Below are positions 348 to 55,286 of a stretch of 64,000 bases of DNA, piece after piece. A program made the position numbers and the translations under genes. Source of the stretch: Clostridia bacterium (GTDB lineage Bacteria > Bacillota > Clostridia > Oscillospirales > Acutalibacteraceae). Position 1 is the stretch's first letter, and each line of letters opens with the position of its first letter. The stretch lies in NCBI GenBank assembly GCA_029098305.1, contig JAQXOB010000047.1, positions 5,101 to 69,100 on the forward strand, given 5' to 3'. The notes under the pieces were generated by a model that saw only the letters and a program-made list of their open reading frames with translations, searched no databases and was not told where the DNA came from.

Positions 348-351
348 CCAT

Positions 352-383: not shown

Positions 384-494
384 TATCAATCTATTGACAT
401 TATTCCTTATTTTGTTTAAAATAATAGTAATAAATCTAAGCACCATATGCGTAGCTTAAGATTATTATATTTTATTTTTATGGAGGTAATTACA

Positions 495-1667
495 ATGAGA
501 ATTTCCAAACTCACAACCAAGGCAATTTCTTGTCTTCTTGTTGCCCTTATGCTTGTAGGCACTATGGCAATTTCACCTGTTGCTTTCGCTTACGACGATA
601 GTAACATTGTTGCTAACGGCCTCAAAATAGACACTGACTCAGATTCAGATACTGATACAGATGTAAAGAAGCCTGTAGTAATTGGCACAAAGATAGGCAA
701 AGGTTCCACAGTACTTATTAAAAAGGACTCTATCGACTTTGAAACCAAAGAGGATATCAACAACTTCTGGACTCTATTTGAATTCACCGTAAAAGAAGTA
801 AACGAGGTTGACCGTACAGCTGAAATTGAATTTATCATTGATGGTGCTAATATTCAAAAGTATGGTCTTACATCAAAAAATATCATCTCTATCTTGAAAG
901 AATTAGGCGTTGATACGAGCGAATTTGATACTTTACTCACTATTGGCGGTGCGGTTCTTGACGCTGCTTTAATGGTTATTAAAATTCCTGTTAAGCGTAC
1001 CGTAGCTCTTGGCGATCTCGATCTTGTAAAAGGCGGTATAAACTCTACCAGAGAAGAGCGTAGATACATAGGTAGAACTGCACACATCAATGCAGATGCT
1101 GTAGATGCAGATGGCGAACCTATAAAGAGCATTTGGTGTGTAATGAACTTTACTATTACAACTGTTATTGGCAGAACAGCCCATCTTCAGGTAAGACTTA
1201 CACCTGAATACCTCGAATCAATGGGTCTCACAAAAGAAGCTTTCGGAAACATGATTGGCGTAAACACCAGTAATGCCTTCTTCAACATAGCTTATGATTC
1301 TATTATGAAAGCCGGCTACACAAAGAACTTTGATGTTGACCTCGATTACCTCACTGTAGAAGGTATTGAACCTGTTACAGATACAGACACAGAGACAGAA
1401 ACAGACACAGAAACTGAAACAGACACAGAGACTGAAACAGATTCTGAAGAAGAACTCCCAATGTATGGCGATGTAGACTGCAACGAGCGTATCAATATGC
1501 AAGACGTTACAACATTGCAGAAAATCATAGCAAACCTAACAACTCACAGAGCTTATGGTCCTCTTTCAATCGAAAACTCTGACTGCAACCACGACCGCAG
1601 AATCAACATGGAAGATGTTACACTTCTTCAGAAATACATTGCTGATTTAGTTTCATCACTTGGATGA
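495..1667 (+). CDS. Secreted dockerin-containing protein of unknown function
   Basis: GGAGG (482-486) lies 8 nt before ATG 495. Signal peptide MRISKLTTKAISCLLVALMLVGTMAISPVAFA. Possible internal duplication (TAEIEFIIDG...GVDTSEF versus TAHLQVRL...GVNTSNAF). TD/TE linker. C-terminal two-segment dockerin (GDVDCNERINMQDVTTLQKIIANL and SDCNHDRRINMEDVTLLQKYIADL). Confidence 0.85.
   Translation: MRISKLTTKAISCLLVALMLVGTMAISPVAFAYDDSNIVANGLKIDTDSDSDTDTDVKKPVVIGTKIGKGSTVLIKKDSIDFETKEDINNFWTLFEFTVKEVNEVDRTAEIEFIIDGANIQKYGLTSKNIISILKELGVDTSEFDTLLTIGGAVLDAALMVIKIPVKRTVALGDLDLVKGGINSTREERRYIGRTAHINADAVDADGEPIKSIWCVMNFTITTVIGRTAHLQVRLTPEYLESMGLTKEAFGNMIGVNTSNAFFNIAYDSIMKAGYTKNFDVDLDYLTVEGIEPVTDTDTETETDTETETDTETETDSEEELPMYGDVDCNERINMQDVTTLQKIIANLTTHRAYGPLSIENSDCNHDRRINMEDVTLLQKYIADLVSSLG
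1377..1442 (+). repeat. In-frame (ACA GAN)n Thr-Asp/Thr-Glu linker, microsatellite-like
   Basis: Encodes TDTDTETETDTETETDTETETD. Imperfect 6-nt periodicity is visible directly in the sequence. Confidence 0.9.
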
Positions 1668-1692
1668 TAGCTAGTTTAATCTAATTGTTTTT

Positions 1693-1726
1693 AAAGCCTT
1701 GTCACTATGAGTGGCAAGGCTTTTTC
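1693..1726 (+). terminator. Rho-independent terminator
   Basis: aaagccttgtcac / gtggcaaggcttt hairpin (one G-U pair) followed by TTTTT. Confidence 0.75.
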
Positions 1727-1871
1727 CTATTATATTTTAGTTATTTTGTCCTCAGCTATTGTATTTTTATTGATTTTATATTATACTAATTGATGTATTT
1801 ACAGATAAAGGCGATTATCGGTTTTTTCGCTTTTATGGTTTTCGTTTTAAGGGAGAACAAGTTTTACTACT

Positions 1872-37900: not shown

Positions 37901-40900
37901 GCCATTTGGATCAAGTGTGAGTGTGTAAGTTTTTGCTGTCCAAATTGCATACAATGTATGTGCACTTGCATTTGCCACAATTGTTGAAGATGTTACTGCT
38001 GTGCCGTTTGTTTTTGCTGTTGACCAGTTCTTGAATGTATAACCTGTACGTGTTGGTGTAGGAAGTGTGCCATAGGTTGAGCCATAAGTTACAGACTTAC
38101 TTGTAGTTTCACATGAGCCACCATTTGCATCAAATGTTACAGTTATGTCGCTTTTTGCTTCCCACTTAGCTTGCAAGGTTGCATCCTCAAATACATCTTC
38201 ACAAAGGTCAGCTTCAAGGCTTCCGTCGGATTTTATAAATCTCTCTGTAGAATGTCCACCATGAACATCTGTGGTGTTATGATAGCCCTTGAAGGTATAA
38301 CCATCCCTTGTAGGAACTGTTATACTTGTAATCTCCTTGGTGCAATCTTTGTCACTATAATACTTGTTTGTACCATAGCTATACCATATATCGCTGGTGC
38401 CATTTGAACCGCTATTTTGATCAAGTGTGATATGAATTGTCTTTGGTGTCCAATGGGCATATGCTGTAGCATCGTTACCACAGCCTACGTCGTTAGCAAG
38501 ACCTCGGAATCCACCACCAAAGTTGGTTCCGCCTGACCAGGTAAGTTTTTTATCACTATCTGTATTATCTGCCTCTTTGAAATATCCCTCAAATGTATAG
38601 CCTTTCTTGGTTGGCGGTGTTATTTGAAGCTCTTTACCTTCATAACGTGGATATGGTGTAGTACATTCTTCGTCCTGATACCATTCTGCATCAATTTCAT
38701 ATAGAGCGTTCCACTTGATGTAAACAACATCGTCACCATCTGTACCGCCTTGCTTATCAAGAGTAATCTTAGAAACTCCTTTACCCCATCGTGCGTACAA
38801 TACATTGGCAGGTGCACTGGAATATACTGTGCCTGATGTCACCTTTTCTCCGCCATCCGGTCTGGTATACCAGCCTTTAAAAATGTATCCTTCACGAACA
38901 GGATCTTCCGGCAAGCTATAATTAGATGAGTAGCCTGCCTTTCTTGGAGCAGGTGTGTATACTTCGGAAGAAGAGTCTGTTCTCTCTATTTTAACCTTAA
39001 ACTGAAGGTTATTATAAACATCTGTGCCGTTCTTCCATGACCAAATTGTAAGGTGATCCACAGCTTTTGCCTGATCAGCAGAGAGCTTAAATGTTTTAGA
39101 AACACTGGTTCCATAATAATCCATTGATGTGCGGTTGTTAGTAGCATTTGAAATCATTTCCTGATTAGAATTATGCAACTCGAAAGCTATGCAGCCGTTA
39201 CCGCTTGTCTTAGAACCGCCTACAGTGGTTACAGTTAGAGTATAAGTACCTTTGCCAAGGTTCAATGGAATCTTCTTTATATCGCCACCTGTGCCTGTTA
39301 CTGTACCATTGAGTGTGTGCACCTCAGTTGTAGCATTGTAAGAATATTGTACTCCTGCTACAGTCGCAGAGGTTGTATCAGGCACATACTCGTTTATACC
39401 AATATCATCATAGTTTACATCGAAGAGAACATTATAAGTTCTGCTTGCATTAAAGTTTTTAACGGTTTGTGCTATTGGTTTCTCCTTAAAGCCATGGGCT
39501 TCATCCATATACATACCATAATTGCCATCATAAGAAGGGTCGTACAGCTTATAGATAAAGAGCACCTGCAAATATGGCAATTCCTTTGCATCTTCAAGCT
39601 CCCATGCCATCTGCTGTGCAGCGCTGTTTAATTGTGCCTGTGTTGGGTCGGTATTTACTGCTGAATCTTCAAATCCTGTTTCAGTCATAAACAAAGGCTT
39701 GCCATCGTCGCCGTGTCTTTGTGCCACTGCATAGATAGCGTTATTCATGTTTATCCAACCTCTATCTGATGAAGAGGAGATTTTGTGAGCATGACTTGCA
39801 GAGTATGGGTGCCAGTTGAGAACCTGGAAATAATCATCTGAATTCATGCTCTTTGTTCTTGCACCAAATGGATGTGCTCCTGATTCGATAGCGCTATACA
39901 CTGCTTCAAGCATATAATCTGATCTAGGAATATATACTGACGAGTTATCGAATTTTAATCCGGGAACACCATTTGCATCTTGACCACTCTTGGCATCATA
40001 AACAGAACACATAGATGGCAAAAGTATCTTTGCTTCTGAATTCACCTTGCGGGCTGCATCTGTAAAGTAGTAGCAAAGGTCAGCAAAAATATGGCCTTTT
40101 TCCTCAGTTGTATAGGTCTTTTCTTTATTGTATACTTCTTCTGACCAGCCTGGTTTAACGCAGTTTGAGTCTGCATCAAATTCATTAAATGGTTCTACAT
40201 AGTCGATCTCCGGGAATTCCTCCAGAATCATTCCTATTCCGGCTGAGTTAATCTCAAGCCAGAGCTTGTAGTTTTCAGGGTCTGCCTTATAATCCGGAAC
40301 TTCCTTCCAGTGTGTATATACATAACCATTAGGGTGGAGCAGTGCATCAAGTGTCAAGAGATATTCTTTTACGTTTGTATCGTCTTTAAAATAATTATTC
40401 AATACTCCCCTGATTATATCTTTTCCGCCCTCTTTCCATACAACAGTATTGTCAGGACGAACAGTGAGTACTGTACCAAGACCAAAGCCATTTCTGAACA
40501 CTTCTATATTAAGCTCTTTAGTATGCTTGATATGATTTGTCGAGTTCAAATGAGGCCATTTGTCAGTTCCGGCTCCAGATAAATCAGTAGCCTGATCAGA
40601 AATACCAATTGTGTAGTTTCCGTCTATTCTATCATATCCCTCTTCCACGTTTTCAATGCTTATAGTGTTACCGCTAATAGAAAGCACCTTATACATTGTG
40701 TGGCCTATATAGAAGGTTTCGCCTACTTTGACATAGGTATTAGTAGCTCTGTCAGTAACATTTCTAAATGTAAAAGCTGTAAAGTTGTGCGACCCACTAA
40801 CTGTGAGTGTGCAAGGATCGCCCACTGTAAATGTAGCACCGGTAAATGTTTGTGTAGATTTGGTGTAGGTGATATCTGCTACCTGTGCATATTTTGAATG

Positions 40901-42400
40901 ACTTGATGTCATACAGCTGTATGCAGATGTGGCACACACTTCGGAATAAATCACACGTGTTTCATTATTTTCATCTTTATAAGCTATATACCCCACCGCC
41001 ATATATGTTGTGGCTAAATCGGAATCGTCTACATTAATGGTTGCAGTGTATTTTGAATCACGAGAGGTACGCACAATCTTTTGAGCATTTGGGTCTAGTG
41101 AATCTAATCTTAAGTTAGATTCATCACTGTAAAGATCCTTGCTTGGCAGGATGAGTGTACCCATCTCTGTTATGCTGTCGCCAAGAGTAGTGTATATGTA
41201 TGGGTCTACAGTAAAACTAAAGTCTATGGCAACTTGTGAGCCGGTGTGAAGCTTCATTTCATTTTTGTAGATATATTCATCATGTGCTTCATACAAAGGT
41301 GCATTATGCAAGTTTTTACCTACAAGACCATTTGCATGATATACCATATATGCCGGTGAAACCTTAACGTCATTATATCCTATATAGCCACCGCTTGTCT
41401 GGTAAAAGTCGGTATAGAAAGGCTCAAACATATATTCGTCGTTAATCTTTACATAAACACAGTCTTTGCCGGCGTTGGGTCCTGCAACTACACGTATTCT
41501 AGCCATCTCTACCTTAGAATATTTATCTGAAGCCAATCTGGAGCCTGTCTTGTGCATTTCACTCCTACGGGAAGACTCTACTTCCCAGCCAAAGTGAGAG
41601 CTATCATCTTTAAACCATAGTGCAAAGCCTGAGCTCCAGTAAGAATCAAAGGCTATTCTGAATCCGGATTGATCACCATCATTTAGTCTGGTGTAGAAAG
41701 TGTATATTACAGAGTAGTATTTACTTGTGCCATCATATGAGTATGAATTTTCGCTCACATAGTTAAGGTCATGATGTGAGATGCGATCTATATCTTTTGT
41801 AAATCCATTATCGGAATATAAACCATTTTCAAAGCTACCTGTGTTAGAATAAAGACGGTTTGATGGGAAGGTAACACTTGCATCAGCAGCATTTGCCATA
41901 TATCCGTTTTCTACATCAAACAAATCTGTATAGAACGAATCTTTCAGCACATCGTTCATCTTGAGATATACATAATACTTGCCGGCATTTGGACCTGATT
42001 CTACATAGAGACGTCCCATTTCTACTAGAGTAGTAGTCGTAACTGCTTCAAGCTTGTTGCCATTGTTATCTTCATTTTGATAGCAGAAATAGGTGGCATC
42101 TTTTTGGAACCATACACCAAAAGGATGTCTCCATGTGTGGTCAAACGTCAACTGATATGACATATCGGCTGTCGGCACCACAAGATACTTGAATTTTACA
42201 GAATATGTAGGCGAAGTGCACTCATATGTTGTATTTTGCCTGTTTCCACTATTAGGTGCAAATTTTAGATCAGTTATAGTGATCTCATCCACCTTATCTG
42301 TGAAGACATCTTCTGCTGCGCTTGCGCTTATCGTGGTTGGAACAATCACAGATGTGACTATCATAACCATTGATAATAGCAACGAAAGCATTTTTTTCAT
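35000..42400 (-). CDS. Giant secreted surface protein 1 (2466 aa): two paralogous N-terminal domains, clan GH-A-like module, ~13 Listeria-Bacteroides-type repeats, shared C-terminal module
   Basis: AGGGGG SD upstream. Signal peptide ...[15 protein letters not shown] and FMTETGFED are candidate acid/base and nucleophile Glu motifs, with NWHPY between them. 13 repeats carry G[YF].F.G[WY]. The C-terminal segment ...LMGVQIRAV...GLRFVSRI...[12 protein letters not shown] is related to giants 2 and 3. Confidence 0.9.
35985..38160 (-). repeat. Near-identical in-frame tandem repeat array inside giant gene 1
   Basis: A ~210-nt block at 35990-36197 recurs almost base-for-base at 36452-36660 (462-nt offset), with variants at ~36700-36900 and ~37150-37360. 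A second block type lies at 36218-36420, 36920-37120 and 37945-38148. Confidence 0.9.
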
Positions 42401-42540: not shown

Positions 42541-42578
42541 AAAAAACAGCCCCAAGGCTTTTTATCACCTTGGGGCTG
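42541..42578 (-). terminator. Rho-independent terminator (11-bp GC-rich stem plus T-run on minus strand)
   Basis: cagccccaagg (42547-42557) pairs with ccttggggctg (42568-42578). The minus-strand read-out ends in TTTTTTGTTT. Identical to the copy at 49631-49668. Confidence 0.85.
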
Positions 42579-42607
42579 TTCATTATGAAAGATATTTATG
42601 AAAAATC

Positions 42608-42769
42608 TTATCTCAACGCACTAAATGCTCTGAAAGCGTTATCAACGTCTACTACAGTATCTGTATCACTCTCTGTTATTTCAGAATCTGTATCACCGGA
42701 TGCTGCCATAACGTCTTGTGCGAGAAGCATTTCATCTATCAATTCCGGAGTATTATATAATTTTTTCAT
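42608..42769 (-). CDS. Unannotated 53-aa acidic protein encoded immediately downstream of giant gene 2
   Basis: Order on the minus strand: stop of giant 2 (42791-42793), 4 nt, AAGGAGGT (42779-42786), 9 nt, ATG (42767-42769). Encodes MKKLYNTPELIDEMLLAQDVMAASGDTDSEITESDTDTVVDVDNAFRAFSALR, TAA at 42608-42610. A frame-preserving paralog lies at 49698-49859. Confidence 0.75.
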   Translation of the reverse strand: MKKLYNTPELIDEMLLAQDVMAASGDTDSEITESDTDTVVDVDNAFRAFSALR

Positions 42770-42790
42770 TGTAAAAATACCTCCTTAAAA

Positions 42791-45700
42791 TCAAGCTATT
42801 TTAGCAAGTTTATCGTAAGCATTGCTAACTGCTGACCAAGCATTATCGAAGCTTGTGCGGCAACCGCCTGCGAACTTACTGTCTGAATATGTGTGGTATC
42901 CACGACGTCCAAATCCGTTAGCGTCTGTGTAATCAACATATGCTCTTGCCTCTACAAGGTCACCCTTGTATGCTGCATCTGCGCCATCATACTTAATAAC
43001 GAGTGTAGACAAGCGATAATCGCCAAACATTCTGTGGTTCTGATCGCCTTCTTTTGTACAATCAATATCTACAGCGCCGGTTGTCTTCTTGTTAAGCTTT
43101 GTAAGATTTGCTATATCGGTCTTAGCATATGCTGTGTAACCATAAGATACGCTCTTGCCCTTCAAGCTCTGGAGCTCTTCGAGCATACCATTGCGATATA
43201 CTGTTACGAAACGAAGTGCGTCTTGATCTGTGTTGCTCATATCTGGCTGATACTTATCTGCAACTTCTTTGCTTCTGATCTGAACACCCTCGAGGCTAAA
43301 GCCCTTGAGTGATGATCCACCATAGCTGTTCTTATCTTTACCGTCCTTAGTAACTGTACCTACTGGTACCCACGCAGCATAGAGATTGAGGTTGCCATCT
43401 GCATCGTCATAATCGGCGATTGTGATGGTCTCTGGGAATGCTGTACCGTTTGTTGTGCCTACAGTAAGGTCTGTAGTGTACCATCCGGCAAACAGATATC
43501 CGCTTCTAACCGGTAGGCCATCCTCAACATTTGCGCCTGCCTCTGCAGATGTGATCGGTGCTTCTGTAAGAGTATGGGTTGTAGCACCATCATATATTAT
43601 TGACTCTTGCAATAATGTTGAACCGTCGTAATAACGAATGTAAGAAGCTTCTTCCTGGTTAGCACTAAGAATTGGTGTTTCTACTTCGTTTACTACTTCA
43701 TTGCCTCTAGCCATATCCATTACTCTAGCAATGCTGTTACCCTCTAATGATGTAGGATATGTTTCACTTGCTCCACGTGGTCCGCCTGATTCAGGGTTAG
43801 CCACAAGCTGAAGTGGAATTGTAATGTAATAAGGAGTAGATGCCTTTAGCTTTGATACATCCCATGTAATTACGTTATCTTTTATAGTAACTACAGAATC
43901 ACCATATTCACCACCACTAGCTGTAGTAGCTGATGTGGTAAAACGAGCTGTATCAATGCTTATTGAAATTTCGTTAGGATGTGCTGCTGAATAGAATGCA
44001 CTTGTGAATGCATCTAGGAGTTTGCTTTCATCGTTAGCACTATATACCATATCTGGGGTTGTGCTGATAGCATCAAGTTGTTCTCTACCATCACTACCTA
44101 GATTTCCCAAATAAACACTTGAGATAGGACAACCGAGTGCCTTTATAGCAGTAGCCTCTGCTCCACCATATATACCATTACTGTCCTTATTACCAAGGTT
44201 TGGATATCCATCTGAGAAGAAAAGAAGCATTGCATCTCTTGATTTATCTTTTCTGTCTCTAATAAAGTTGCGTGCCTGTTCTAAGCCTGCTGAGTAATCT
44301 GTGTTTCCTTCTGCTATTTGAGCGTTAAGATATATCAAAATCTTTTGTAAATCATCTGTAAAATCAAGGCTTGATTCTAAATCATCACCAAATGTTGTAA
44401 ATGCCACACGGCTACCCTTGATCTGTGTTAGAACAGAGGCTGACATTTTTTCGACAATATCAATCATTGTAGTAAATTTACTACCTGTCATACTACCACT
44501 TACATCAAGTACAAATACTACATCTTTTGGCTCGTATAGCGCATAGGAATAATCTACACGAATCTCAGCTGTAGTTTTGGATTCATCCATCCACCTAGCT
44601 GATTGCTTAATCCATGTATTGGAGTATTCTCCGTTTAACTTACCAATTTTAGTATCTTCGTAACCTTCTACGACATTGTTGTCACCTTCGTAGTAGAATG
44701 ATGAATCTTTAAAGACTTCGTCAAAAGCTACATCATCTGCCCAAATCGCATAAAGCTTATCTGTTACTTCAAAATTAAGAATATCAGAGTTAAAAATTCC
44801 ATATAGAGTATTATTTGTTGACCAACCAATAAATTCGTCATTATCCCTAGTCGGTGTTGGTAATGATGCAATAGGAGTACCTACGGTTTTTGTAATAGTT
44901 GTAGATGTACCCGCCGGTAATGTTCCACCATTCACATCAAGAGTTATATCATATGTAGCTCCAAATTCCATAAAACGTGATAAGGTGTTTGTTTCGCTAC
45001 AATAATCATATGCTTTTGATGGTTTTGGTGCTACTACAATAGTATAATCTGGAACAGCTGTTGCTCCCATACTTGTATTATCACCATAAATATAAACTGA
45101 TTTTAAGTGACTGCAATCTTTAAATGCGGAATCTGATATAGTTGTTACACTTTCTGGAATATCAATTGATGTTAATGTATTGCAGTATCCAAATGCTCCA
45201 CTTCCAATGGTTGTTACACTGTCTGGAATATCAACTGATGATAACATAGTACATCTTTCAAATGCTCTGCTTTCAATGGTTGTTACAGTGTCTGGAATAT
45301 CAATTGATGTTAATGAGCAAGCTTCTAAAAATGCAGAAGCAGGTATAGTTGTTACACCGTCTTCGATATCAATCGATGATAATGCGGTACAGTATGCAAA
45401 TGCAGCAACGCCCAGGCTTGTGACACTGCTCGGAATATTAACTGATGTCAATGCAGTACAGAATGCAAATGCATTATTTCCAATGCTTGTCACACTAGAT
45501 GGAATTTCTACTGATGTTAACGAATGACAACCGTAAAATGCTGTATTTCCTATGCTTTTTACACCATCTGGAATAACAAGTGGTGTTAATGATCTACATG
45601 AATGAAATGCACCATTTCCAATAGTTGTTACACTGTCTGGAATATTAATTGTTTTTAATAATTCACATGAACGAAATGCATTATCGCTTATAATTGTTAC

Positions 45701-48700
45701 ACCGTCTTCGATATCAACCGATGATAATGCAGCACAGTATATAAATGCTCTGCTTCCAATGGTTGTTACACTACCTGGAATATCAACTGATGCTAGTGAT
45801 GAGCAATCTTCAAATGCACTACTTCCTATAGATGTAACGCTATCCGGTATCTTTACTTTTTCTAGGTTTATACAGCGCTTAAATGCATCGTTAGAAATAT
45901 TTGTAACGCCATTATCTATTACCACAGATTTGATATCATTAATATGATAACTAAGCCATGGTTGTATTGAAATGCTACTCATATCTCCTTTGCCATAGAT
46001 ATAAAGTGTACCATCATCGGTAATATACCAATTGAGATTGTTACCATTTGCTCCTGTTTCGCCGGAATCTACTACTGTCTTTTCCCATACTGCATATATA
46101 ACTGTGTCATATTTGGTATCAAGGTCATAAACACTTGTAAACTCTGCATCACTCTGTGAATATCCATACTTACTTGTAGACCAACCCAAGAAATTTTGTT
46201 CACTGAGTGTAGGTGTTAGGCTTGAGAGTGAAATATCTTCGCCATATGTTTTGGTCATAGACTTCACTGTCTCATTATCTGCAAACTTACCACCGTTAGC
46301 ATCAAAAGATACTGTGTGATTTACAGGTGTTAGTGGAACAAAGGTGATTCCTTTTGATTTGCAATATTCCTCTGCAAAAGTATCATAATAACCATAAACT
46401 CTAAGTTCTTTAGGGCATTTTATGAAAGCATCATCTCCGATAGATGTAACATTCTCACGCATAATTACTTTTTTCAAGCTAGCACAATTTTTAAATGCTT
46501 GATCGCCTATAGATGTAACGCCCTCTGGTATCTCTATTGAGGTTAAGCCTTTACAATTGATAAATTGTTGAGTTTTTATAGCTTTCATAGAGCTTGGCAA
46601 TCTAACAGATATTAATCCTGTTGCACCTTCGAATAGGTAGTTACCCATAGATGTAACAGTATCCGGTATTTCTAGTGATATCTCTCCGCTGCAATAAGAA
46701 AATGCACCATAATCTATAGATGTAACACTATCGGGTATTTCTATTGATAGTTTTCCGCTGAAATAAGCAAATGCCTGACTACCTATAGATGTAACACTAT
46801 CTGGAATGCTAACTGAAGTTAAATTAGTACACTTGTAAAATGCTTTGTTGCCTATGCTGGTTATTCCATTTTCTATTTCTATTGATGTGATAGAACTTTT
46901 GTAAGAATACCATGGTGCATATTCACTAAAATCGGTCATATCGCCTGAGCCTGTGATAACAAGCTTTCCTTCTTCGGTAATATACCAAGTGATAGCACCA
47001 TTTTCCAAGGTACCGGAAACTATAGCACCAAATTGATTCTTAAATGTAATGTTATTAGCATTACAATAGCTCTCTGCCACTGAATTTGTTTCTCCAGATA
47101 CTACAAGATCAGCTGAACAATTCTTGAAAGCATCGGTTCCAATGCTAGTAACACTAGCTGGGATTGTTGCTGATGTCAGATTGCTACAGCCATAGAAAGC
47201 ACTTCTTCCAATGCTAGTTACAGTAGCTGGGATTGTTACTGAAGCCAAACTAGAGCAACTTTGGAAGCTGTAATCAGGAATTTTTGTAACAGCTGGGCCA
47301 AATGTTAAAGACTTTAAGGCACTAATGCCATTGAAGTAATTAGTATTAGTCATCTCACAGTTAATAGTAAGTTCTTCCAATCCATAACAAGAAGAAAATG
47401 CTCCACTGTTAAGGTTAGTAACACTAGCCGGAATTGTTAATGAAGGCAAATTAGGACAAGTTGAAAATGCTCCATAACCAATGCTAGTTACACCCTCTGG
47501 GATTGTTAACGAAGTCAGATTAATACAAGATCCAAAAGTTCCATCATTAATACTAGTCACGCCGGATGGAATTGCTACTGATTCTAAACTACGACAGCCA
47601 TTAAAAGCATACTGTCCAATGCTAGTAAGCTTAGATGGGAGTGTTGCTGTTGATAGATTTGAACAACCATAAAAAACATAACTTCCAATGCTAGTCAGAG
47701 TAGATGGGAATGTTACTAAAGTCAAGTTAGAGCAATTTTGGAAGCAATAATCAGAGATTGTTGTAACACCCTCGCCAAATGTAACAGACTTCAAGCTATT
47801 ACGATTACAGAAATAAGCAGTACCAGGGAGATTACAGTTTATATTAAGATTTTCCAGTCCATTGCAATTATTAAATGAATTAAAACTAATAGAAGTAGCA
47901 GTTTTTGGGATAGTTAGTGTTTTAATATTTGAACAACCATCAAATGCATAATCTGCAACATCTGTGATACCTTCCAAATATACAACTGATGTGATATCAT
48001 ACATATAATCGCGCCAGTTACCCAAGTCGCCACTGGAAGAACCTTTACCACTTAAAACAAATGTTCCATCCTCGTATAATGTCCATCTAAGGTTGCCGTT
48101 ATAATCACCTGAAGCTTTAACCTCACTGGTAGAACTCTCAAATGTAATACCCTTGCTGTTACAATAACTCTCTGCATATGAACCTGGTTCTCCAGATATC
48201 ACGAGATCGCTTGAGCAATATGAAAAAGCATTGCTTGCAATGCTAGTTACACTAGATGGAATCTCAACTGATGTGAGATTGCTACAACCATAGAAAGCAC
48301 CGTCCCCAATAGTGGTTACACCATCAGAAATCACTACTGATGTAAGTTTATCACTATAATAGAAAGCATCCTCTCCAATAGATTTTACACTACTTGGAAT
48401 TACTACTGATGTAACATTAGTATACTCAAATGCATAACCACGAATTGTTTCAACAGTATCAGGAATAGTTCCTGTTGACTGCACTGTGGCTTTTATCAGC
48501 TCTTTTCCATCTGCTGTAAGTAACAAGTTATCTTCTAATACAAAGGAAGTGTTTTGTGGGGATATTGTAATGGATGTAAGTTTTGCACCACCGGCAAGTT
48601 TATCCCCTATGCTCTGTAAACCACTACCAATAGTTAATGAAGTTAAAGAGTTACAACCGGAGAAGTTGTTAGTACCAATAGATGTAACACTATCCGGGAT

Positions 48701-49333
48701 TACAAAAGACTCTAAGCTACTACAACCACCAAAGTTATTATCACCAATAGTTTTTATATTATTTCCAAGTGTTACAGTTTTCAAACTGGTGCATCCACCA
48801 AACATAGCATTTGGCAATGCAGTAAGACCGTCACCTATTACAAAGGAAACCAATTTTTGACAGCCACCAAACAAACTGTCTGATAATGTTGTAACACCGT
48901 TACCCATGTCAACAGACACTAAACCAGTACATCCACCAAATGCACCACTACCAACCGTAGTAACAGTATCTGCAATAGTTAATGTTTCGATATTTGAACA
49001 TCCACCAAATGCCTGTGCTGCAATATCTGTGATACCGTCCTCAAATACAAGTGATGTGATATTGCCCATGTATTTACGCCAGGTTGCTTTATCGCCACTG
49101 GTGGTACCTGATGTTGCATTGGGTCCTTTTTTTACAATGAAACTTCCATCGTCATAATATTCCCATATGACACCAGTATCGTTATAGTCGCCACTCTCAA
49201 CTAAAGTTGCACCTCTGGCTTCCAAGTCTTTGACACCATTGCCAAAAACGTCTTTGATACCCTCAGCATTAACTGCTATTGCACTAGATAATGCCAGCAT
49301 TGCTACTAAGAGTATGCTGATAATTTTTTTCAT
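42791..49333 (-). CDS. Giant secreted surface protein 2 (2180 aa): four BspA-type leucine-rich-repeat cassettes, Listeria-Bacteroides-type repeats, vWA domain, shared C-terminal module
   Basis: Signal peptide ...AIAVNA. Many ~23-aa units of the type F.GC..L.S[VI].IP.SVT.IG..AF. vWA MIDAS motif VVFVLDVSGSMTG (about 44.5 kb). C-terminal ~190 aa are nearly identical to giant 3. Confidence 0.9.
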   Translation of the reverse strand: MKKIISILLVAMLALSSAIAVNAEGIKDVFGNGVKDLEARGATLVESGDYNDTGVIWEYYDDGSFIVKKGPNATSGTTSGDKATWRKYMGNITSLVFEDGITDIAAQAFGGCSNIETLTIADTVTTVGSGAFGGCTGLVSVDMGNGVTTLSDSLFGGCQKLVSFVIGDGLTALPNAMFGGCTSLKTVTLGNNIKTIGDNNFGGCSSLESFVIPDSVTSIGTNNFSGCNSLTSLTIGSGLQSIGDKLAGGAKLTSITISPQNTSFVLEDNLLLTADGKELIKATVQSTGTIPDTVETIRGYAFEYTNVTSVVIPSSVKSIGEDAFYYSDKLTSVVISDGVTTIGDGAFYGCSNLTSVEIPSSVTSIASNAFSYCSSDLVISGEPGSYAESYCNSKGITFESSTSEVKASGDYNGNLRWTLYEDGTFVLSGKGSSSGDLGNWRDYMYDITSVVYLEGITDVADYAFDGCSNIKTLTIPKTATSISFNSFNNCNGLENLNINCNLPGTAYFCNRNSLKSVTFGEGVTTISDYCFQNCSNLTLVTFPSTLTSIGSYVFYGCSNLSTATLPSKLTSIGQYAFNGCRSLESVAIPSGVTSINDGTFGSCINLTSLTIPEGVTSIGYGAFSTCPNLPSLTIPASVTNLNSGAFSSCYGLEELTINCEMTNTNYFNGISALKSLTFGPAVTKIPDYSFQSCSSLASVTIPATVTSIGRSAFYGCSNLTSATIPASVTSIGTDAFKNCSADLVVSGETNSVAESYCNANNITFKNQFGAIVSGTLENGAITWYITEEGKLVITGSGDMTDFSEYAPWYSYKSSITSIEIENGITSIGNKAFYKCTNLTSVSIPDSVTSIGSQAFAYFSGKLSIEIPDSVTSIDYGAFSYCSGEISLEIPDTVTSMGNYLFEGATGLISVRLPSSMKAIKTQQFINCKGLTSIEIPEGVTSIGDQAFKNCASLKKVIMRENVTSIGDDAFIKCPKELRVYGYYDTFAEEYCKSKGITFVPLTPVNHTVSFDANGGKFADNETVKSMTKTYGEDISLSSLTPTLSEQNFLGWSTSKYGYSQSDAEFTSVYDLDTKYDTVIYAVWEKTVVDSGETGANGNNLNWYITDDGTLYIYGKGDMSSISIQPWLSYHINDIKSVVIDNGVTNISNDAFKRCINLEKVKIPDSVTSIGSSAFEDCSSLASVDIPGSVTTIGSRAFIYCAALSSVDIEDGVTIISDNAFRSCELLKTINIPDSVTTIGNGAFHSCRSLTPLVIPDGVKSIGNTAFYGCHSLTSVEIPSSVTSIGNNAFAFCTALTSVNIPSSVTSLGVAAFAYCTALSSIDIEDGVTTIPASAFLEACSLTSIDIPDTVTTIESRAFERCTMLSSVDIPDSVTTIGSGAFGYCNTLTSIDIPESVTTISDSAFKDCSHLKSVYIYGDNTSMGATAVPDYTIVVAPKPSKAYDYCSETNTLSRFMEFGATYDITLDVNGGTLPAGTSTTITKTVGTPIASLPTPTRDNDEFIGWSTNNTLYGIFNSDILNFEVTDKLYAIWADDVAFDEVFKDSSFYYEGDNNVVEGYEDTKIGKLNGEYSNTWIKQSARWMDESKTTAEIRVDYSYALYEPKDVVFVLDVSGSMTGSKFTTMIDIVEKMSASVLTQIKGSRVAFTTFGDDLESSLDFTDDLQKILIYLNAQIAEGNTDYSAGLEQARNFIRDRKDKSRDAMLLFFSDGYPNLGNKDSNGIYGGAEATAIKALGCPISSVYLGNLGSDGREQLDAISTTPDMVYSANDESKLLDAFTSAFYSAAHPNEISISIDTARFTTSATTASGGEYGDSVVTIKDNVITWDVSKLKASTPYYITIPLQLVANPESGGPRGASETYPTSLEGNSIARVMDMARGNEVVNEVETPILSANQEEASYIRYYDGSTLLQESIIYDGATTHTLTEAPITSAEAGANVEDGLPVRSGYLFAGWYTTDLTVGTTNGTAFPETITIADYDDADGNLNLYAAWVPVGTVTKDGKDKNSYGGSSLKGFSLEGVQIRSKEVADKYQPDMSNTDQDALRFVTVYRNGMLEELQSLKGKSVSYGYTAYAKTDIANLTKLNKKTTGAVDIDCTKEGDQNHRMFGDYRLSTLVIKYDGADAAYKGDLVEARAYVDYTDANGFGRRGYHTYSDSKFAGGCRTSFDNAWSAVSNAYDKLAKIA

Positions 49334-49630: not shown

Positions 49631-49668
49631 AAAAAACAGCCCCAAGGCTTTTTATCACCTTGGGGCTG
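49631..49668 (-). terminator. Rho-independent terminator (copy 2, identical stem)
   Basis: Same cagccccaagg...ccttggggctg hairpin and T-run as at 42541-42578. Confidence 0.85.
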
Positions 49669-49697
49669 TTCATTATGAAAGATACTTATGAAAAATC

Positions 49698-49859
49698 TTA
49701 TCTCAACGCACTAAATGCTCTGAAAGCGTTATCAACGTCTACTACAGTATCTGTATCACTATCTGTTGTATCAGAACTTACATCGCCAGATGCTGCCATA
49801 ACGTCTTGTGCGAGAAGCATTTCATCTATCAATTCGGGAGTATTATATAATTTTTTCAT
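49698..49859 (-). CDS. Unannotated 53-aa acidic protein encoded immediately downstream of giant gene 3 (paralog of 42608-42769)
   Basis: Same layout: stop of giant 3 (49881-49883), 4 nt, AAGGAGGT (49869-49876), 9 nt, ATG (49857-49859). Encodes MKKLYNTPELIDEMLLAQDVMAASGDVSSDTTDSDTDTVVDVDNAFRAFSALR. Confidence 0.75.
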   Translation of the reverse strand: MKKLYNTPELIDEMLLAQDVMAASGDVSSDTTDSDTDTVVDVDNAFRAFSALR

Positions 49860-49880
49860 TGTAAAAATACCTCCTTAAAA

Positions 49881-52800
49881 TCAAGCTATTTTAGCAAGTG
49901 CGTCGTAAGCATTGCTAACTGCTTTCATAGTAGCATTGAAGCTTGTGCGGCAGCCGCCTGCGAACTTGCTGTCTGAATATGTGTGGTATCCACGACGTCC
50001 AAATCCGTTAGCGTCTGTGTAATCAACATATGCTCTTGCCTCTACAAGTGAATCCATGTATGCAGAATCTGCGCCATCATACTTGATAACGAGTGTAGAT
50101 AAGCGATAATCGCCAAACATTCTGTGGTTATGATCGCCTTCCTTTGTACAATCTACATCTTTAGCGCCACTTGTCTTATCATCAAGGCTTGTGAGAGATG
50201 ATATATTATCCTGAGCATATGCTCTATAACCATAAGATACGCTCTCGCCGTGCAAGCCCTGAAGCTCTTCGAGCATACCGTTGCGATATACTGTTACGAA
50301 ACGAAGTGCATCTTTATCAGTATTGCGGTCGCCATTCTGATACTTATCTGCTACTTCTTTGCTTCTGATCTGAACACCCTCGAGGCTAAAGCCCTTAAGT
50401 GTTGTATCTCCATAGTTGTTCTTATCTTTACCGTCCTTAGTAACTGTGCCTGTTCTTACAAAGCCTGAATAGAGGAATACAACATTTTCATATGTTGTAC
50501 CATCGATATCTGTGCTAGCTAATACATTACATGTTGAGAGATCAATCTCTTTACCAAATGCCTGAGTTGGATCTACATGGTGATTTGAGTAGCTATACTG
50601 TGATGCTTCCTTAGTCTTGAACCATCCTGCAAACAATAAATTATTATCATTATGGGATGGAACACCGTCTTTAACAAGGCCGGCATTTTGACCGTAAACA
50701 TGTGTGATTGGTGCAGATGTGAGTGTAAGAGGACTCTCTACATTCTCATCGATCTGATAGAACAACTCACCAGAATTGTTCTGGTTATTTGCATAAATTA
50801 CTGTGTAGGTTAGATCTTCTTCTTCGATTGCTTTTGAAGCATCAACAAAGATACCTGTTGCTACAACATCCTTTGCTGGCATTGTAAACTTACCATCTTT
50901 TACATATACATCATCGCTGATGTAACCGTCAAAGATATGTGTTGAAGGCACACCTGTGATTTCAGGAAGTGTAACTTCTTCGCCTGCTGCGTATACAAAT
51001 GTCTTTGTAGTTAAGTTCATGCTTGCAGGAGCGTTTCTGTAGTTTACAGTTACTGTGTAATAAACCGGAGTATCGCCTGATGTTTGGCCATCTGTTGCGA
51101 GTTTTACCCAGTTACCACGAACTACTGTATCCTTTGTGAGTGCTGGAGTTGTTGCGCCAGCCTCATATACTGTGCCGTCAATTGTCCAGCCCTGGAAGTA
51201 GTAACCTTCCACTGCTTCTGGATATGTTGCGATAGTTGTTGTGTTGTTGTATGCAACTGTAGTTGCTGTTGGCTCTGTTCCTACCTTTGCTGAAGGAACA
51301 TCTCCTGTAAACTCATAAGATACAACTACTTCTGTTGGAGTTGGTACTTCGTTTGCAGAATATGTACCAATTGCACGGAGGTTCTGATTTGGCATTGCGA
51401 ATGTTGAACCAGCCTCTGCACCACGTGCACCTCTTGGTGCTTCAATGCTGTCAAATACTTGACCATCTTCGCCATAGAAAGTCCAACCTTCGAAACGATA
51501 ACCGTCTACTGGTGTATGGTTTTCTACTGTTACAGTAGCATCAACATCATAAGAAGCTGCTGCTGGTGCAACTACACCAGATGGTACTGTACCAACATAC
51601 TGATAAGAAACGTTCTTAGGAAGGTTATCCTGATCTGCGTTCTTATCTACGTAATGATATGTTACATTACTTACCTTAACAACGTTCTGCTCCTGAATTG
51701 TTGCAGAGTTGTAGAAATCTCTGTGAAGAAGGCCATCAGGTAGAGTATCTACTGTACACTGGAATGTGATTATCATATAACCATGAGAATCGAGACCTAC
51801 AATCTTAACAACGATTGCGCCCTCAGAATCAATGCTATAATCCTTGCCGTCTTGCTTAACTATTTCGCCATGTGCCTTTGTGGTATTTTCAGGGTTTTCA
51901 GGATCATAATTTCCGAAAACTACTGCTTCTTGTGATACCTGAATAGAGTCTTCAATAAGTGTGAGGCCTTCTGGCAACTCATCTCTAATTGTAACTACAC
52001 CATGTTTAAAGTCGCTCTCTAATGAAGGAGCTCTTGGGCCCTTAATTTTAATTGTGTAGTCAATTGTAGCGCCCTCGTTTACTTGACCATACTCGATGGT
52101 CTCGCCTTCTCCACGGTCCACATCAAGAGTAGTAACTACTGCTGCATCTTTGCTATCATTAACTACTACATCAAGGTCAGCTGGTGTGTTAACAAGAGCT
52201 GTGCCGTGTGATGGTGTGTATGCAGGTGCCTCTGAAGCTAAACCCTTATAATAACTACTAAAGTTAGTTAAAAGATAATCAGGTCCATAAATGTTCTTTA
52301 AAGCAGTACATCCAGAGAAATAATTAGAGAAGCCTCCAGTGAAAACTGAAGAGGAATTTGGTGCTATAACTGTAGTAAGTGATGTACATTTATAGAACGG
52401 ACTTGCACCAATTTTATCTGATACCATAGACAGATCTATATATTCAAGTCCGGATTCAGAGAATCCATATTGTTCTATTTTGGTTGTAACTGGTGGCAAC
52501 TCAATATATTTTAATGCCTTACATTTTCCAAACATCGAATATGTTACGTAGAATGGATTTGAGTCTGTCTTACCCATTTCTATATTAACTTCTGACAAAT
52601 TTGTACAACCTACAAATAATTCACTTGCTACAGTAAGGGTTGTAACTGTTTCAGGAATAGTAATACTTGTAAGACTTGTACAATTTGCAAAAACCCTATT
52701 CCAAGGTGTTGTTACACTGGCTGGAATTGTAAATGATTCCAATGAGCTACAATTTTCAAACAATGATTGACCAAGTGTTGAAAATGTACTATTACTTCCA

Positions 52801-55136
52801 ACACCACATGTCTTCAATGAACTACAATTATAGAAAACACTGGCTCCAAGAGAGGTTATTTTTGCCTCACTCTCATTAAATGATACAAGGTTTTTGTTAT
52901 TATAAAACGCTTCATCTGCTATTGATAATGTATTACTGGAAACTATAGCAGTGCTAAGATTACAATTTTTAAATGCTTTAGCCTCAATAGTAGTTAAGCT
53001 CGGAGCATTTAAAGTTGCTAACTTCGAACAACTTTCAAATGCTGATATTCTAACTCTTGTACAATTTGGAAGTATTGCTGAAGTTAAACTTGTACATGAT
53101 CTAAATGCAGAAATTTCAACAGATGTAACTTTATCTGCATTTGGAATTGAGGTCAATGATGAGCAAAAAGTAAACCAATAATCACCTATATAACCTACAT
53201 CCTCATTAAATGTTACAGAGGTCAATGAAGTACACTCTGCAAACAAACCTTTATTCAAGGATGAGGTTACTCCTGTAATATTCGAAAGATCCATAGTTTC
53301 GAGAGAAGAACATCCAGCGAAAGGCACATAGTATTTAGAAGAATTTGGTTTCCACATTTTGGTTAATGAAGCAGGAAGCTCACATGATTTAAGATATCTA
53401 AGACCCTTAAAAACTTTTGTGGTATATGATATTGGTATAGATCCTTTACCACAATATAGAGCAAAACTGCTTCCATAAATGGTTTGTCCTTCTGGAAGAA
53501 CCTCAACTTCTGATAAATCGAGATGCTCCACATAATCTATCTCGTTAGTCCTGAACAAGCACATATCAATTTCTTGAATTTTTCCAAAGAACTGAATTGT
53601 TGTAAGTTGTGCAAGATCAATTGTTCCTGCAGTATGCAAGTTCTTTAATGTGTTTACCTCAGAATCAGCAAATGTAGCCCAAGTGTCAGTCACTCTGTTT
53701 CTTATATATAGAGTATCGCTACCTTCCAATTTATAGTCAAACTTAGTATCGCCAATTGGAAGCCAACCTGATGCTAGAGGATTAGTTGCCTTTGCTTCTA
53801 ACTCTACATTAGGTACTGTGCAGAAGTAAGACTTGAATTCTAGATCCACTGGTGGCATTTTAAATGTTTGTCCTGGATATTCAGGGAAATAATCGCTTCT
53901 AGTACAATCCCAACGTCTGAAAATAACATCGTCTGAAGGATTATCCTCTGCAATGTCAAGCAAAGTTACTGTTTCACCTGGCATATAGCCCTTGCTATCA
54001 ACCGGTGCTTCTCCGCATCCTGCGTCAACTGTATATGTAACATTGTATCTATATCTGTCTAATACAGGAGAGTCTACTCCAAGTGAACCGCCTGTATAAG
54101 AGAGAACAGCTTTTCCGTTGTTTGTTGGGAAATCACCCTCAGTTGAATCACTATGTGCAAAGGTTAACTCTGCAGAAAACATTTCTGAACCTGTCAAATC
54201 GCCTATAGTCCATTTTAATGTATTTCCAGACTCTGATACGTAACCTGAAGTTACTGACACATTAGAAATATTTGTAACATAGAAATCAGAGGATACTATG
54301 TCTGTAAGTACAACATTATTGAGGCAAGAATCAGGATCGTACTCAACCATAAGAGCACGAAGCTTTTCTGCGAATCCCTCTACAGAATCAAGTAAAGAAA
54401 TTTTATCTACTACTGCTCTAAAATCAGCAGAGAAAGCAGATCCTAGCATATACTGTAAGCCGTATACCTTACCGCCCATTGCGTTAATTGCAGATTTAAC
54501 GCTCTTTGCTGTTGCAGTACCTGCTGTTGGGAGACCATCACTGATAAATGCTACACGAATAGCATTAGTTGTATTAGTACGTGCATCAATAAGCTTCTTT
54601 GCTTCCATAAAGCCGGCACCATAGTTGGTGAGACCGTCAACTGACATTGCATCAACGGAAGCATTAAATGCAGCCAAATCATTTGTGAAATCACAAAGAG
54701 AACTTGCAGTAGAACCAAACTGTACAAGAGCAACTCTTGAACCATTATTACGATTGATAATATCTTGAGCTGTTGCTTTGATACCAGCTTTTTCCTGTGC
54801 AAGACGATCGCCTTCCATTGAGTCTGAAATATCGGCTATAAAAACAACATCAACCGGTAAATCAAGTACTGTAGGAGAAGCGTTCTTTGGAGCTATGTAA
54901 AAATCTACTCTTGCTTTTGTACGCTCCAAGTTTAACCATTCTGCATATTCTTCAATGCGTACAACATCGTTTTCGGTGTCTTTTCGATCAGCGGTTCCTC
55001 CTCTTTCAGAACCGTCGGCAGTTGTTTGAACATCATTGAGGTCTTTGTCAGCTACTTCTGCACCGGATACGCCGATACAAACGCTTGTGAGCAACAATGA
55101 CATTGTAAGAACAAGAGCCAAAATCTTCTTTTTCAT
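49881..55136 (-). CDS. Giant secreted surface protein 3 (1751 aa): N-terminal vWA domain, BspA-type LRR cassette, DUF11-like and Listeria-Bacteroides-type repeats, shared C-terminal module
   Basis: Signal peptide MKKKILALVLTMSLLLTSVCIGVSGA. MIDAS motif VVFIADISDSMEG. LRR units C.SL.S[VI]. The C-terminus matches giant 2. Start set at ATG 55136 (AAAGGAAG SD 6 nt upstream), not the track's 55142. Confidence 0.9.
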   Translation of the reverse strand: MKKKILALVLTMSLLLTSVCIGVSGAEVADKDLNDVQTTADGSERGGTADRKDTENDVVRIEEYAEWLNLERTKARVDFYIAPKNASPTVLDLPVDVVFIADISDSMEGDRLAQEKAGIKATAQDIINRNNGSRVALVQFGSTASSLCDFTNDLAAFNASVDAMSVDGLTNYGAGFMEAKKLIDARTNTTNAIRVAFISDGLPTAGTATAKSVKSAINAMGGKVYGLQYMLGSAFSADFRAVVDKISLLDSVEGFAEKLRALMVEYDPDSCLNNVVLTDIVSSDFYVTNISNVSVTSGYVSESGNTLKWTIGDLTGSEMFSAELTFAHSDSTEGDFPTNNGKAVLSYTGGSLGVDSPVLDRYRYNVTYTVDAGCGEAPVDSKGYMPGETVTLLDIAEDNPSDDVIFRRWDCTRSDYFPEYPGQTFKMPPVDLEFKSYFCTVPNVELEAKATNPLASGWLPIGDTKFDYKLEGSDTLYIRNRVTDTWATFADSEVNTLKNLHTAGTIDLAQLTTIQFFGKIQEIDMCLFRTNEIDYVEHLDLSEVEVLPEGQTIYGSSFALYCGKGSIPISYTTKVFKGLRYLKSCELPASLTKMWKPNSSKYYVPFAGCSSLETMDLSNITGVTSSLNKGLFAECTSLTSVTFNEDVGYIGDYWFTFCSSLTSIPNADKVTSVEISAFRSCTSLTSAILPNCTRVRISAFESCSKLATLNAPSLTTIEAKAFKNCNLSTAIVSSNTLSIADEAFYNNKNLVSFNESEAKITSLGASVFYNCSSLKTCGVGSNSTFSTLGQSLFENCSSLESFTIPASVTTPWNRVFANCTSLTSITIPETVTTLTVASELFVGCTNLSEVNIEMGKTDSNPFYVTYSMFGKCKALKYIELPPVTTKIEQYGFSESGLEYIDLSMVSDKIGASPFYKCTSLTTVIAPNSSSVFTGGFSNYFSGCTALKNIYGPDYLLTNFSSYYKGLASEAPAYTPSHGTALVNTPADLDVVVNDSKDAAVVTTLDVDRGEGETIEYGQVNEGATIDYTIKIKGPRAPSLESDFKHGVVTIRDELPEGLTLIEDSIQVSQEAVVFGNYDPENPENTTKAHGEIVKQDGKDYSIDSEGAIVVKIVGLDSHGYMIITFQCTVDTLPDGLLHRDFYNSATIQEQNVVKVSNVTYHYVDKNADQDNLPKNVSYQYVGTVPSGVVAPAAASYDVDATVTVENHTPVDGYRFEGWTFYGEDGQVFDSIEAPRGARGAEAGSTFAMPNQNLRAIGTYSANEVPTPTEVVVSYEFTGDVPSAKVGTEPTATTVAYNNTTTIATYPEAVEGYYFQGWTIDGTVYEAGATTPALTKDTVVRGNWVKLATDGQTSGDTPVYYTVTVNYRNAPASMNLTTKTFVYAAGEEVTLPEITGVPSTHIFDGYISDDVYVKDGKFTMPAKDVVATGIFVDASKAIEEEDLTYTVIYANNQNNSGELFYQIDENVESPLTLTSAPITHVYGQNAGLVKDGVPSHNDNNLLFAGWFKTKEASQYSYSNHHVDPTQAFGKEIDLSTCNVLASTDIDGTTYENVVFLYSGFVRTGTVTKDGKDKNNYGDTTLKGFSLEGVQIRSKEVADKYQNGDRNTDKDALRFVTVYRNGMLEELQGLHGESVSYGYRAYAQDNISSLTSLDDKTSGAKDVDCTKEGDHNHRMFGDYRLSTLVIKYDGADSAYMDSLVEARAYVDYTDANGFGRRGYHTYSDSKFAGGCRTSFNATMKAVSNAYDALAKIA

Positions 55137-55286
55137 ATACATCTTCCTTTCTAAAATTAATTAGATAAATTTTTAAGGATATTTGCTAATGATTATATTT
55201 AAAGCTGCCCTCCTTTACATTGGTCAACTGCGCCTAAAGTGAGAAAATACGCCATTTATGCTATTAAGCACAGTATTACTATGGTC

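Follow-up and report, generated by a model that had tools for sequence, protein, structure and literature searches.

The DNA analysed here, called the window throughout, is a stretch of 64,000 nucleotides from a metagenome-assembled genome (MAG) listed as Clostridia bacterium (contig JAQXOB010000047.1). Its reverse strand, on which all window features lie unless stated otherwise, carries two copies of a small acidic open reading frame (ORF) of 53 codons plus stop, both labelled 'hypothetical protein' in GenBank. Copy 2 (49698..49859; MDD5924515.1, PUC88_06985) follows the gene of a giant surface protein of 1753 residues (49881..55142), which has a signal peptide and VWA, BspA-type LRR_5 and Flg_new_2 domains. 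Copy 1 (42608..42769; MDD5924513.1, PUC88_06975) follows the gene of a second giant of 2180 residues (42791..49333) with a signal peptide, LRR_5 (×13), Flg_new and VWA. The 21-nt spacer from the TGA stop of the giant gene to the ATG of the small ORF (49860..49880, with its twin at 42770..42790) is ttttAAGGAGGtatttttaca. It contains the Shine–Dalgarno (SD) sequence AAGGAGG, 10 nt upstream of the ATG of copy 2, and is identical before both copies, in three loci of the MAG 'Clostridiaceae bacterium MAG143' (MAG143 below) and in the metagenome contig L019. An intrinsic terminator with a 15-bp stem, 8 GC pairs and a T-run lies after copy 2 (49634..49671; twin 42544..42581). A promoter-like site precedes each giant gene and a terminator closes each small ORF. 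Copy 2 is the last cistron of a two-gene operon, the first cistron of which encodes a giant Sec-secreted surface protein.

Pairwise alignment of the two small ORFs reveals exactly 10 nucleotide differences and no gaps. Three are synonymous third-position changes (Pro-8 CCG/CCC, Ser-24 TCC/TCT and Gly-25 GGT/GGC); the remaining seven sit in codons 27, 28, 30, 31 and 33 and convert TDSEITE in copy 1 to VSSDTTD in copy 2. Residues 1–26 and 34–53 are identical. An earlier note on this DNA had given the same tally of nucleotides and residues, with which our realignment agrees throughout, and had described the copies as sharing length, SD sequence, spacing and terminator, as they indeed do. Copy 2 can be divided into a conserved head of 24 codons (49788..49859, MKKLYNTPELIDEMLLAQDVMAAS; 42698..42769 in copy 1), the variable patch of codons 27–33 (49761..49781; 42671..42691 in copy 1) and a clade-specific C-terminal part (49701..49760, SDTDTVVDVDNAFRAFSALR), for which a short helix is predicted at residues 43–52.

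The peptide family and the giant genes that it follows

A single-sequence exhaustive search with the peptide returned only three relatives; a profile search retrieved 22. Nine positions are invariant across these 22 sequences (M1, K2, Y5, P8, E13, L15, D19, V20 and S24). The invariant residues were back-translated into a degenerate DNA pattern, which was scanned over a metagenome collection. All 42 matches proved to be ATG-initiated ORFs of 31–87 codons with a GGAGG-type ribosome-binding site ahead of them, against zero chance matches expected from shuffled window sequence. The sense frame is open in every one of 31 distinct homologous DNA sequences, while both other sense frames are always broken by stops and just 3–26% of the sequences have open antisense frames. 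The 53-aa ORF is therefore a genuine protein gene, since it has a strong SD sequence, a frame kept in all homologues, a head under purifying selection (see below) and a pattern that chance does not produce. Two antisense ORFs of 72 aa, at 49660..49878 and 42570..42788 on the forward strand, were rejected as artefacts of codon composition; they are open only in close relatives, and diverged homologues carry stops within them. Each small ORF of the window shares its reading frame with the giant gene before it, the two being separated by TGA-TTT-TAA-GGA-GGT-ATT-TTT-ACA (49860..49883 and 42770..42793). A read-through fusion is nevertheless unlikely, as two stops (TGA and TAA) intervene and the spacers elsewhere, of 5–71 nt, occur in all three frames.

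The family head spans 24 residues, M-K-x-[LIVM]-Y-x-x-P-x-[LIM]-x-x-E-x-[LF]-x-x-x-D-V-[LMI]-[ACT]-[AST..]-S. It is followed by a low-complexity tail of 8–63 residues that is net acidic in all members but one. In two codon-aligned clades the head has a summed pairwise ratio of non-synonymous to synonymous differences per site (pN/pS) of 0.34 and 0.26, the tail one of 0.72 and 0.68. All indel columns fall in the tail, except that one sequence has lost a single residue at head position 4. The end of the tail is conserved within the window clade as [EV]-V-D-N-x-[FI]-x-x-F-S-[AT]-[LF]-R and is different in a Ruminococcus clade (GLGGMTNVI or GLGDLANIL). Neither a signal peptide nor a hydrophobic, potentially transmembrane segment was found in the peptide. 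An AlphaFold2 (AF2) model built on a 22-sequence alignment has no fold; the extended head has the highest predicted local distance difference test scores (pLDDT 72–76), the linker scores low, and residues 43–52 form the short helix.

We define the family by a 24-aa head that begins an ORF of 31–87 aa with its own SD sequence, placed 5–71 nt after the gene of a large secreted protein. This description fits both window copies and the related loci with readable upstream DNA, from genomes and metagenomes alike. The peptides apparently constitute a large, undescribed family in gut and rumen Clostridia that fits no known one. In function they would come closest to docking peptides of the leader type or to accessory factors coupled through an operon. 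Neither the window copies nor 10 diverse relatives have an above-threshold match in Pfam-A, NCBIfam, PHROGs or PADLOC; a profile search of the PDB gave 0 matches at E ≤ 10, and searches of a literature library for the motif and for comparable gene pairs found nothing relevant. A phage or defence origin finds no match in viral contigs, PHROGs or PADLOC, and a search for RNA elements in the region gave one sub-threshold chance match and nothing else. MAG143 has four copies at four loci, and the window, the part of its genome analysed here, has two. The commonest member, a 32-aa peptide (MKEVYTKPVVEVEQFLSVDVITTSTEEGYIEF) recorded from Anaerotruncus sp. CAG:528, is present on at least 1000 contigs.

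Wherever the upstream DNA of a locus is readable, the small ORF lies 5–71 nt after a large ORF on the same strand, and a classical Sec signal peptide is present on the upstream protein wherever its N-terminus is available. The upstream domains that can be recognised (BspA-type LRR_5, VWA, Flg_new and Flg_new_2) belong to surface proteins, and the same cluster also contains cohesin/dockerin proteins. In an all-against-all clustering of neighbouring ORFs, the only clusters common to the head types were the upstream large surface-protein genes.

The 1753-aa giant ends in a domain of about 198 aa (49884..50477), with the motifs GVQIR, ALRFV, YGY, DC, ARAYVDYTDANG and GGCRTSF, which stops one residue short of the stop codon; the 2180-aa giant has the same domain (42794..43387). 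A terminal domain of about 190 aa with two invariant cysteines ends the upstream proteins of both the window clade and the Ruminococcus clade. It is 76–79% identical among paralogues and is matched by nothing in Pfam or the PDB; searched against a protein database, it gave a single match. The window also encodes a third giant of 2466 aa with Flg_new (×13) (35000..42400), which contains a related C-terminal domain (35129..35689) and is followed by no small ORF. The occurrence of the peptide is linked to a giant that does not extend past its last domain. Among the ORFs examined, a head-motif ORF comes after each of the 21 whose domain reaches to within 1–8 residues of the stop; none follows the three domain copies that carry a helical extension of 20–42 aa, namely giant 3, its MAG143 orthologue and a second MAG143 protein. 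The helical extension may substitute for the peptide.

The extension of giant 3 measures 42 residues (35003..35128), and the last 75 residues of its MAG143 orthologue (L001 10304..17053) are identical. That of the second MAG143 protein (L006 3861..7541) is 20 aa long, likewise helical and likewise without a small ORF. We considered gene fission, by which the peptide would have split off from such an extension, and rejected it, because hhalign found no similarity between the peptide profile and the 60-aa C-terminus of giant 3.

Peptides with the same head also occur in a second setting. Short 'DVITTS'-type peptides follow proteins with a different C-terminal domain, and hhalign detected no significant relationship between the two upstream domain types. 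The tail classes track the upstream domain classes.

The flanks of the window are housekeeping in character (FAD synthetase, an ABC exporter, an M20 peptidase, a TIGR01212-like radical SAM protein, YitT, Obg, prolidase and GltX). The ABC protein, of 560 aa, comprises ABC_membrane and ABC_tran only and has no C39 domain. Throughout the loci examined (window flanks, gene tables of the related loci and the clustering of neighbours) no maturase, RiPP recognition element (RRE) protein, protease or peptidase-type ABC exporter recurs, RiPP standing for ribosomally synthesised and post-translationally modified peptide.

Several related loci have features of their own. In the Ruminococcus clade a gene for a conserved multi-pass membrane protein lies 15–57 nt after the small ORF (L007 3404..3940, L018 5379..6116, L048 and L054); the protein has 166–245 aa, no Pfam match and an acidic C-terminal tail, ERGESGR-VR-SD-FF. 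The gene is not present in L008, L009, the window clade or the other head types. In the Ruminococcus contigs L012 (3855..5154) and L013 (3300..4599) a radical-SAM/SPASM gene and a Target_ACGX precursor lie about 2.7 kb downstream on the opposite strand. Their proximity is probably coincidental, because the radical-SAM gene has its own precursor and is missing from the other loci. In L020 (6154..7317 and adjacent ORFs) the commonest 32-aa member ends a cluster of surface-protein genes, one of which encodes a 387-aa protein with cohesin and dockerin domains; the cluster suggests a cellulosome- or amylosome-like assembly. We also note a weak family match in L017 (P0022, E = 0.16; MKKIYQTPQTECYKVTLQQMIAASGD…; 1560..1742), 176 nt after a protein (1..1383) ending …KKGLYIMDGKKVLVK, an ending which we take to resemble the C-terminal sorting domain of the Bacteroidetes type IX secretion system (T9SS). 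If this relationship is real, the link to large secreted proteins would reach beyond Clostridia.

The variable patch and the duplicated cassette

The two small ORFs do not stand alone as repeats. There are two in the window because the paralogous giant genes share a 3′ cassette of about 0.82 kb, made up of the giant C-terminal domain, the spacer, the small ORF and the terminator (42544..43363, with its twin at 49634..50453, an offset of 7090). The repeat is 820 nt long and gapless, has 88 differences and includes the last ~190 codons of both giant genes; within it the giant C-terminal domain differs at 77 of 570 nt with a pN/pS of 0.57. The differences are strongly clumped, leaving identical tracts of 80, 75, 63 and 51 nt, the summed length of which was unmatched in 20,000 permutations. 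This mosaic of identity points to a gene-conversion-like history of the whole cassette.

The contig L019 supports such a mosaic history. It is the orthologue of the copy-2 locus, as judged by the same sequence past the terminator, and has a patch of the copy-2 type (VNSDTTD) beside a domain tail of the copy-1 type that is identical to copy 1 at 94 of 99 positions and to copy 2 at 85 of 99.

A further observation concerns the giants themselves. Those of the window and the upstream ORFs of L003, L004, L005, L015 and L021 share nearly the same signal peptide and first ~20 mature residues (MKKIISILLVAMLALSSAIAVNAEGIKDVF…; 49250..49333 and 55050..55142 in the window). They share the 3′ cassette as well, and their middles vary in domain content and in length (707–2180 aa). 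The giants thus look like a family in which the ends are conserved and the middles can be exchanged.

The cassette bears directly on how the comparison of the two copies is to be read. The earlier note had seen in it a coding-type substitution pattern with purifying selection on both ends. The coding character stands, and across the family the N-terminal part is under purifying selection, with a lower pN/pS for the head than for the tail. The identity of the ends within this pair is another matter. The non-coding flanks are at least as alike as the coding head (0 of 21 differences in the spacer and 1 of 66 in the 3′ untranslated region (UTR) and terminator, against 3 of 78 in codons 1–26), so that this identity cannot be credited to protein-level selection alone and is in part cassette homogenisation. 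The differences within the ORF are non-randomly placed, 7–8 of the 10 falling within 21 nt (P ~ 7.5 × 10⁻⁵ by nucleotides and 0.011 by codons). The wider alignment that the note had asked for, in search of stops or indels, bore out the frame, which is open in all homologues, and placed the indels almost wholly in the tail. It likewise confirmed conserved ends around a variable centre, in that the N-terminal head and the clade motif VDNxFxxFSALR are conserved and the start of the tail is variable.

The earlier model makes the patch a determinant of specificity, diversified by selection, so that every peptide fits the giant that it accompanies. We consider this improbable. In its favour, the 21 nt of the patch hold seven non-synonymous changes and not a single synonymous one, and the patch pN of 0.43 exceeds the background pS of ~0.20, the patch having been picked post hoc. 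These changes are distributed over 16.2 non-synonymous and 4.8 synonymous sites, for which 0.77^7 = 0.16, a neutral-compatible value. Four of the seven changes form adjacent doublets and may be single events. Family-wide, moreover, the tail has a pN/pS below 1, and the claim of a diversifying or specificity-determining centre was not upheld. For a matching of peptide and giant speaks a diverged fourth pair of MAG143 (L006), which differs in both peptide (64% identity) and domain (48%). The patch is nevertheless uncoupled from the adjacent domain in L019, as described above, and again between L004 and L005, where the domain tails are identical (99 of 99) and the patches differ, that of L005 by a two-codon in-frame deletion. 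In-frame deletions are thus tolerated in the patch, which in composition is the low-complexity D/S/T/E start of the acidic tail. Besides the deletion variant the patch has at least two alleles; among close relatives TDSEITE recurs in three loci of two genomes and VSSDTTD/VNSDTTD in the window and L019. Mutagenesis of the patch by a diversity-generating retroelement (DGR) was discarded on inspection, as the substitutions are not adenine-specific.

The simplest reading is that the patch is a weakly constrained low-complexity linker, the alleles of which have been shuffled among paralogues, because the indels sit in the tail, the tail pN/pS is ~0.7, patch and domain are uncoupled and the cassette is a mosaic with near-identical non-coding flanks. 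The two copies with their variable patch are a real observation with an ordinary explanation. A general caution follows: when paralogues of one genome are compared, a low-complexity linker inside a cassette homogenised by gene conversion can mimic a diversifying centre between conserved ends.

Possible roles of the peptide

We tentatively put forward, as a possibility somewhat short of an even chance, that the peptide is a docking or escort peptide for the C-terminal end of the giant. The extended head would be a docking motif, unfolded until it binds a partner that the whole family shares. Because the head is conserved across different upstream domains, it should bind something common to all these bacteria; the tail changes class with the upstream protein and so could contact that protein. 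The peptide would be made beside, and probably in step with, the giant C-terminus, the gene order placing the peptide N-terminus near the just-completed giant end. The peptide might then serve as a dedicated escort or assembly cofactor that holds, targets or retains this end during export or surface attachment, its clade-specific tail contacting the giant and its head the shared machinery of the cell.

Several observations weigh against the docking proposal. The same head stands behind at least two unrelated domain types and so cannot read the domain itself. The correlation of tail class with domain class is confounded by shared ancestry, and the charges of peptide and domain show no systematic complementarity. 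The extension-bearing exceptions, three in number, are only two independent cases. The AF2 model of the giant C-terminal domain, made from a 4-sequence alignment, failed (pLDDT 31). Finally, the peptide has neither signal peptide nor transmembrane segment while the giant is exported, which would require either a cytoplasmic and transient interaction or a novel export route.

The main rival to an escort role is a leader/core precursor, giving rise to a RiPP-like product or a signalling peptide, in which the head would be the leader for a maturase, RRE protein or exporter encoded elsewhere, the tail would be the released product, and co-transcription with the giant would couple expression only. 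We regard this as unlikely, while acknowledging how much of the peptide anatomy it accommodates: a conserved head with a tail hypervariable in length and sequence, a peptide that by AF2 is extended and disordered on its own, and more than one copy in a genome (2 in the window, 4 in MAG143). The MKKxYxxPxL head matches the YxxPxL of lasso- and RRE-type leaders, and there are weak matches to NCBIfam lasso_cyano (E = 0.1, residues 1–11) and, for one relative, to a thiopeptide precursor (E = 0.026). Precursors scattered at a distance from the enzyme that serves them are known, among them the prochlorosins. The enzymes and exporters that such a leader would call for do not recur in the examined loci; with lasso spacing there would be no Thr at −2, and some tails are only 8–11 aa long, with no Asp/Glu at 7–9 and no Cys. 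Nor would a precursor explain the strict position right after the gene of a giant secreted protein or the absence of the ORF at exactly those giants that have a C-terminal extension.

The toxin/immunity, regulator and partner-specificity models are less likely than the escort and precursor readings. A small cytoplasmic regulator, an acidic peptide that reports or feeds back on giant expression, for instance by titrating a DNA-binding or envelope-stress regulator, would suit the one-to-one coupling of expression with the giant transcript, the lack of an export signal and the acidic, disordered nature of the peptide. No regulator gene is consistently near, however, and the tie to an exact C-terminal architecture of the giant would go unexplained, so we think it doubtful at best. 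More improbable still is an immunity protein or antitoxin, with the giant as a polymorphic-toxin-like protein that ends in a toxin domain. Such a role is brought to mind by a small acidic ORF that comes directly behind the terminal domain of a secreted giant and by domain and ORF travelling together as a cassette. The domain is, however, conserved rather than polymorphic, occurs in several paralogues per genome, has no toxin-family match and in giant 3 lacks a partner ORF. The patch is uncoupled from it and the same head follows unrelated C-terminal domains. The peptide, which can be as short as 32 aa, is predicted to be unfolded and has no PADLOC or PHROGs match.

The head-motif peptides could perhaps, though we would not call it likely, represent a new class of trans-acting cofactors for giant surface proteins, or else a leader-dependent peptide system with co-released products. 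In the former case one possibility is that the cytoplasmic peptide captures the last-made end of the giant and retains or positions the adhesin at the membrane. Either version, if true, would add a new element to the biogenesis of surface proteins of the Gram-positive type. The giant proteins of gut Clostridia in question lack LPXTG, SLH or other known anchors, and the peptide gene offers a concrete, testable handle on the export, retention and assembly of anchor-less proteins of multi-thousand residues, among them proteins with BspA-type LRR, InlB B-repeat or VWA domains and others encoded near cohesin/dockerin genes. The 24-residue motif is conserved across giant families and very common in human-gut assemblies; the peptide is one of those conserved small proteins that escape current family databases.

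Comparison with known systems

The leaders of lasso peptides carry a YxxPxL motif, which lies some 17 to 12 residues ahead of the core (PMC10368454). The same motif is found here as Y5-N-T-P8-E-L10, in which Y5 and P8 are invariant and position 10 is L, I or M in nearly all members. In lasso precursors the penultimate residue of the leader is Thr (rarely Ile or Val), and the core starts with Gly, Ala, Ser or Cys and has Asp or Glu at position 7–9. Lasso spacing, when applied to the family, places the invariant V20 at −2 and the start of the core at A/C/T22; the Asp/Glu at 7–9 in the window copies is to be expected in any D/E-rich tail, and the relatives of 32–33 aa would have 11-aa 'cores' with no acidic residue at 7–9. 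The likeness to lasso and other RRE-dependent precursors extends to a small, extended, multicopy peptide with an MKK-x-Y-x-x-P-x-L N-terminus and a leader-like head of ~24 aa, before a hypervariable C-terminal part that often starts with Gly. The differences lie in Val in place of Thr at −2 if the lasso spacing is applied, in many tails that are too short or have no acidic residue at 7–9, and in the position of the ORF, which is always the cistron right after a giant surface-protein gene and not a feature of RiPP clusters. In addition, no gene for the lasso B protein (RRE, or B1, and the transglutaminase-like protease, B2) or for the asparagine-synthetase-like C cyclase was present in the window flanks, the related-locus gene tables or the neighbour clustering.

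Double-glycine leaders do not fit. By inspection, the spacing of L10-E13-L15-V20-S24-G25 does not match L(−12)xxxE(−8)L(−7)xxI(−4)xG(−2)G(−1), and the nearby ABC protein has no C39 domain of the kind expected of a double-glycine exporter. The prochlorosins (ProcA/ProcM) are dispersed precursors served by one remote enzyme. They resemble the present family in having many paralogues per genome, a conserved leader with a hypervariable core and a location away from the enzyme gene, and differ in their Nif11 leader, their Cys/Ser/Thr-rich cores for lanthionine formation and the lack of an obligate partner gene.

Polymorphic toxin cassettes (CdiA-CT/CdiI, Rhs, LXG and WapA/WapI) share with the loci described here a giant secreted protein, its C-terminal domain and a small ORF, as well as a cassette shared by paralogues. 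Here, in contrast, the domain is conserved (76–79% identical), is not toxin-like and is without a Pfam or PDB match, the head is common to unrelated domains, and the peptide, probably unfolded, shows no co-variation with the domain.

Operon-encoded partners can assemble co-translationally, as LuxA and LuxB do, and type III chaperones are small, acidic, folded dimers of ~130 aa. The latter act on substrates of the type III secretion system (T3SS), whereas here the giant is a Sec substrate in a lineage of the Gram-positive type and the peptide can be as short as 32 aa. With secretion chaperones the peptide has in common that it is likewise small and acidic; with these and with co-translational partners it shares its place as the adjacent downstream cistron, which brings a conserved N-terminus to the C-terminus of the upstream product.

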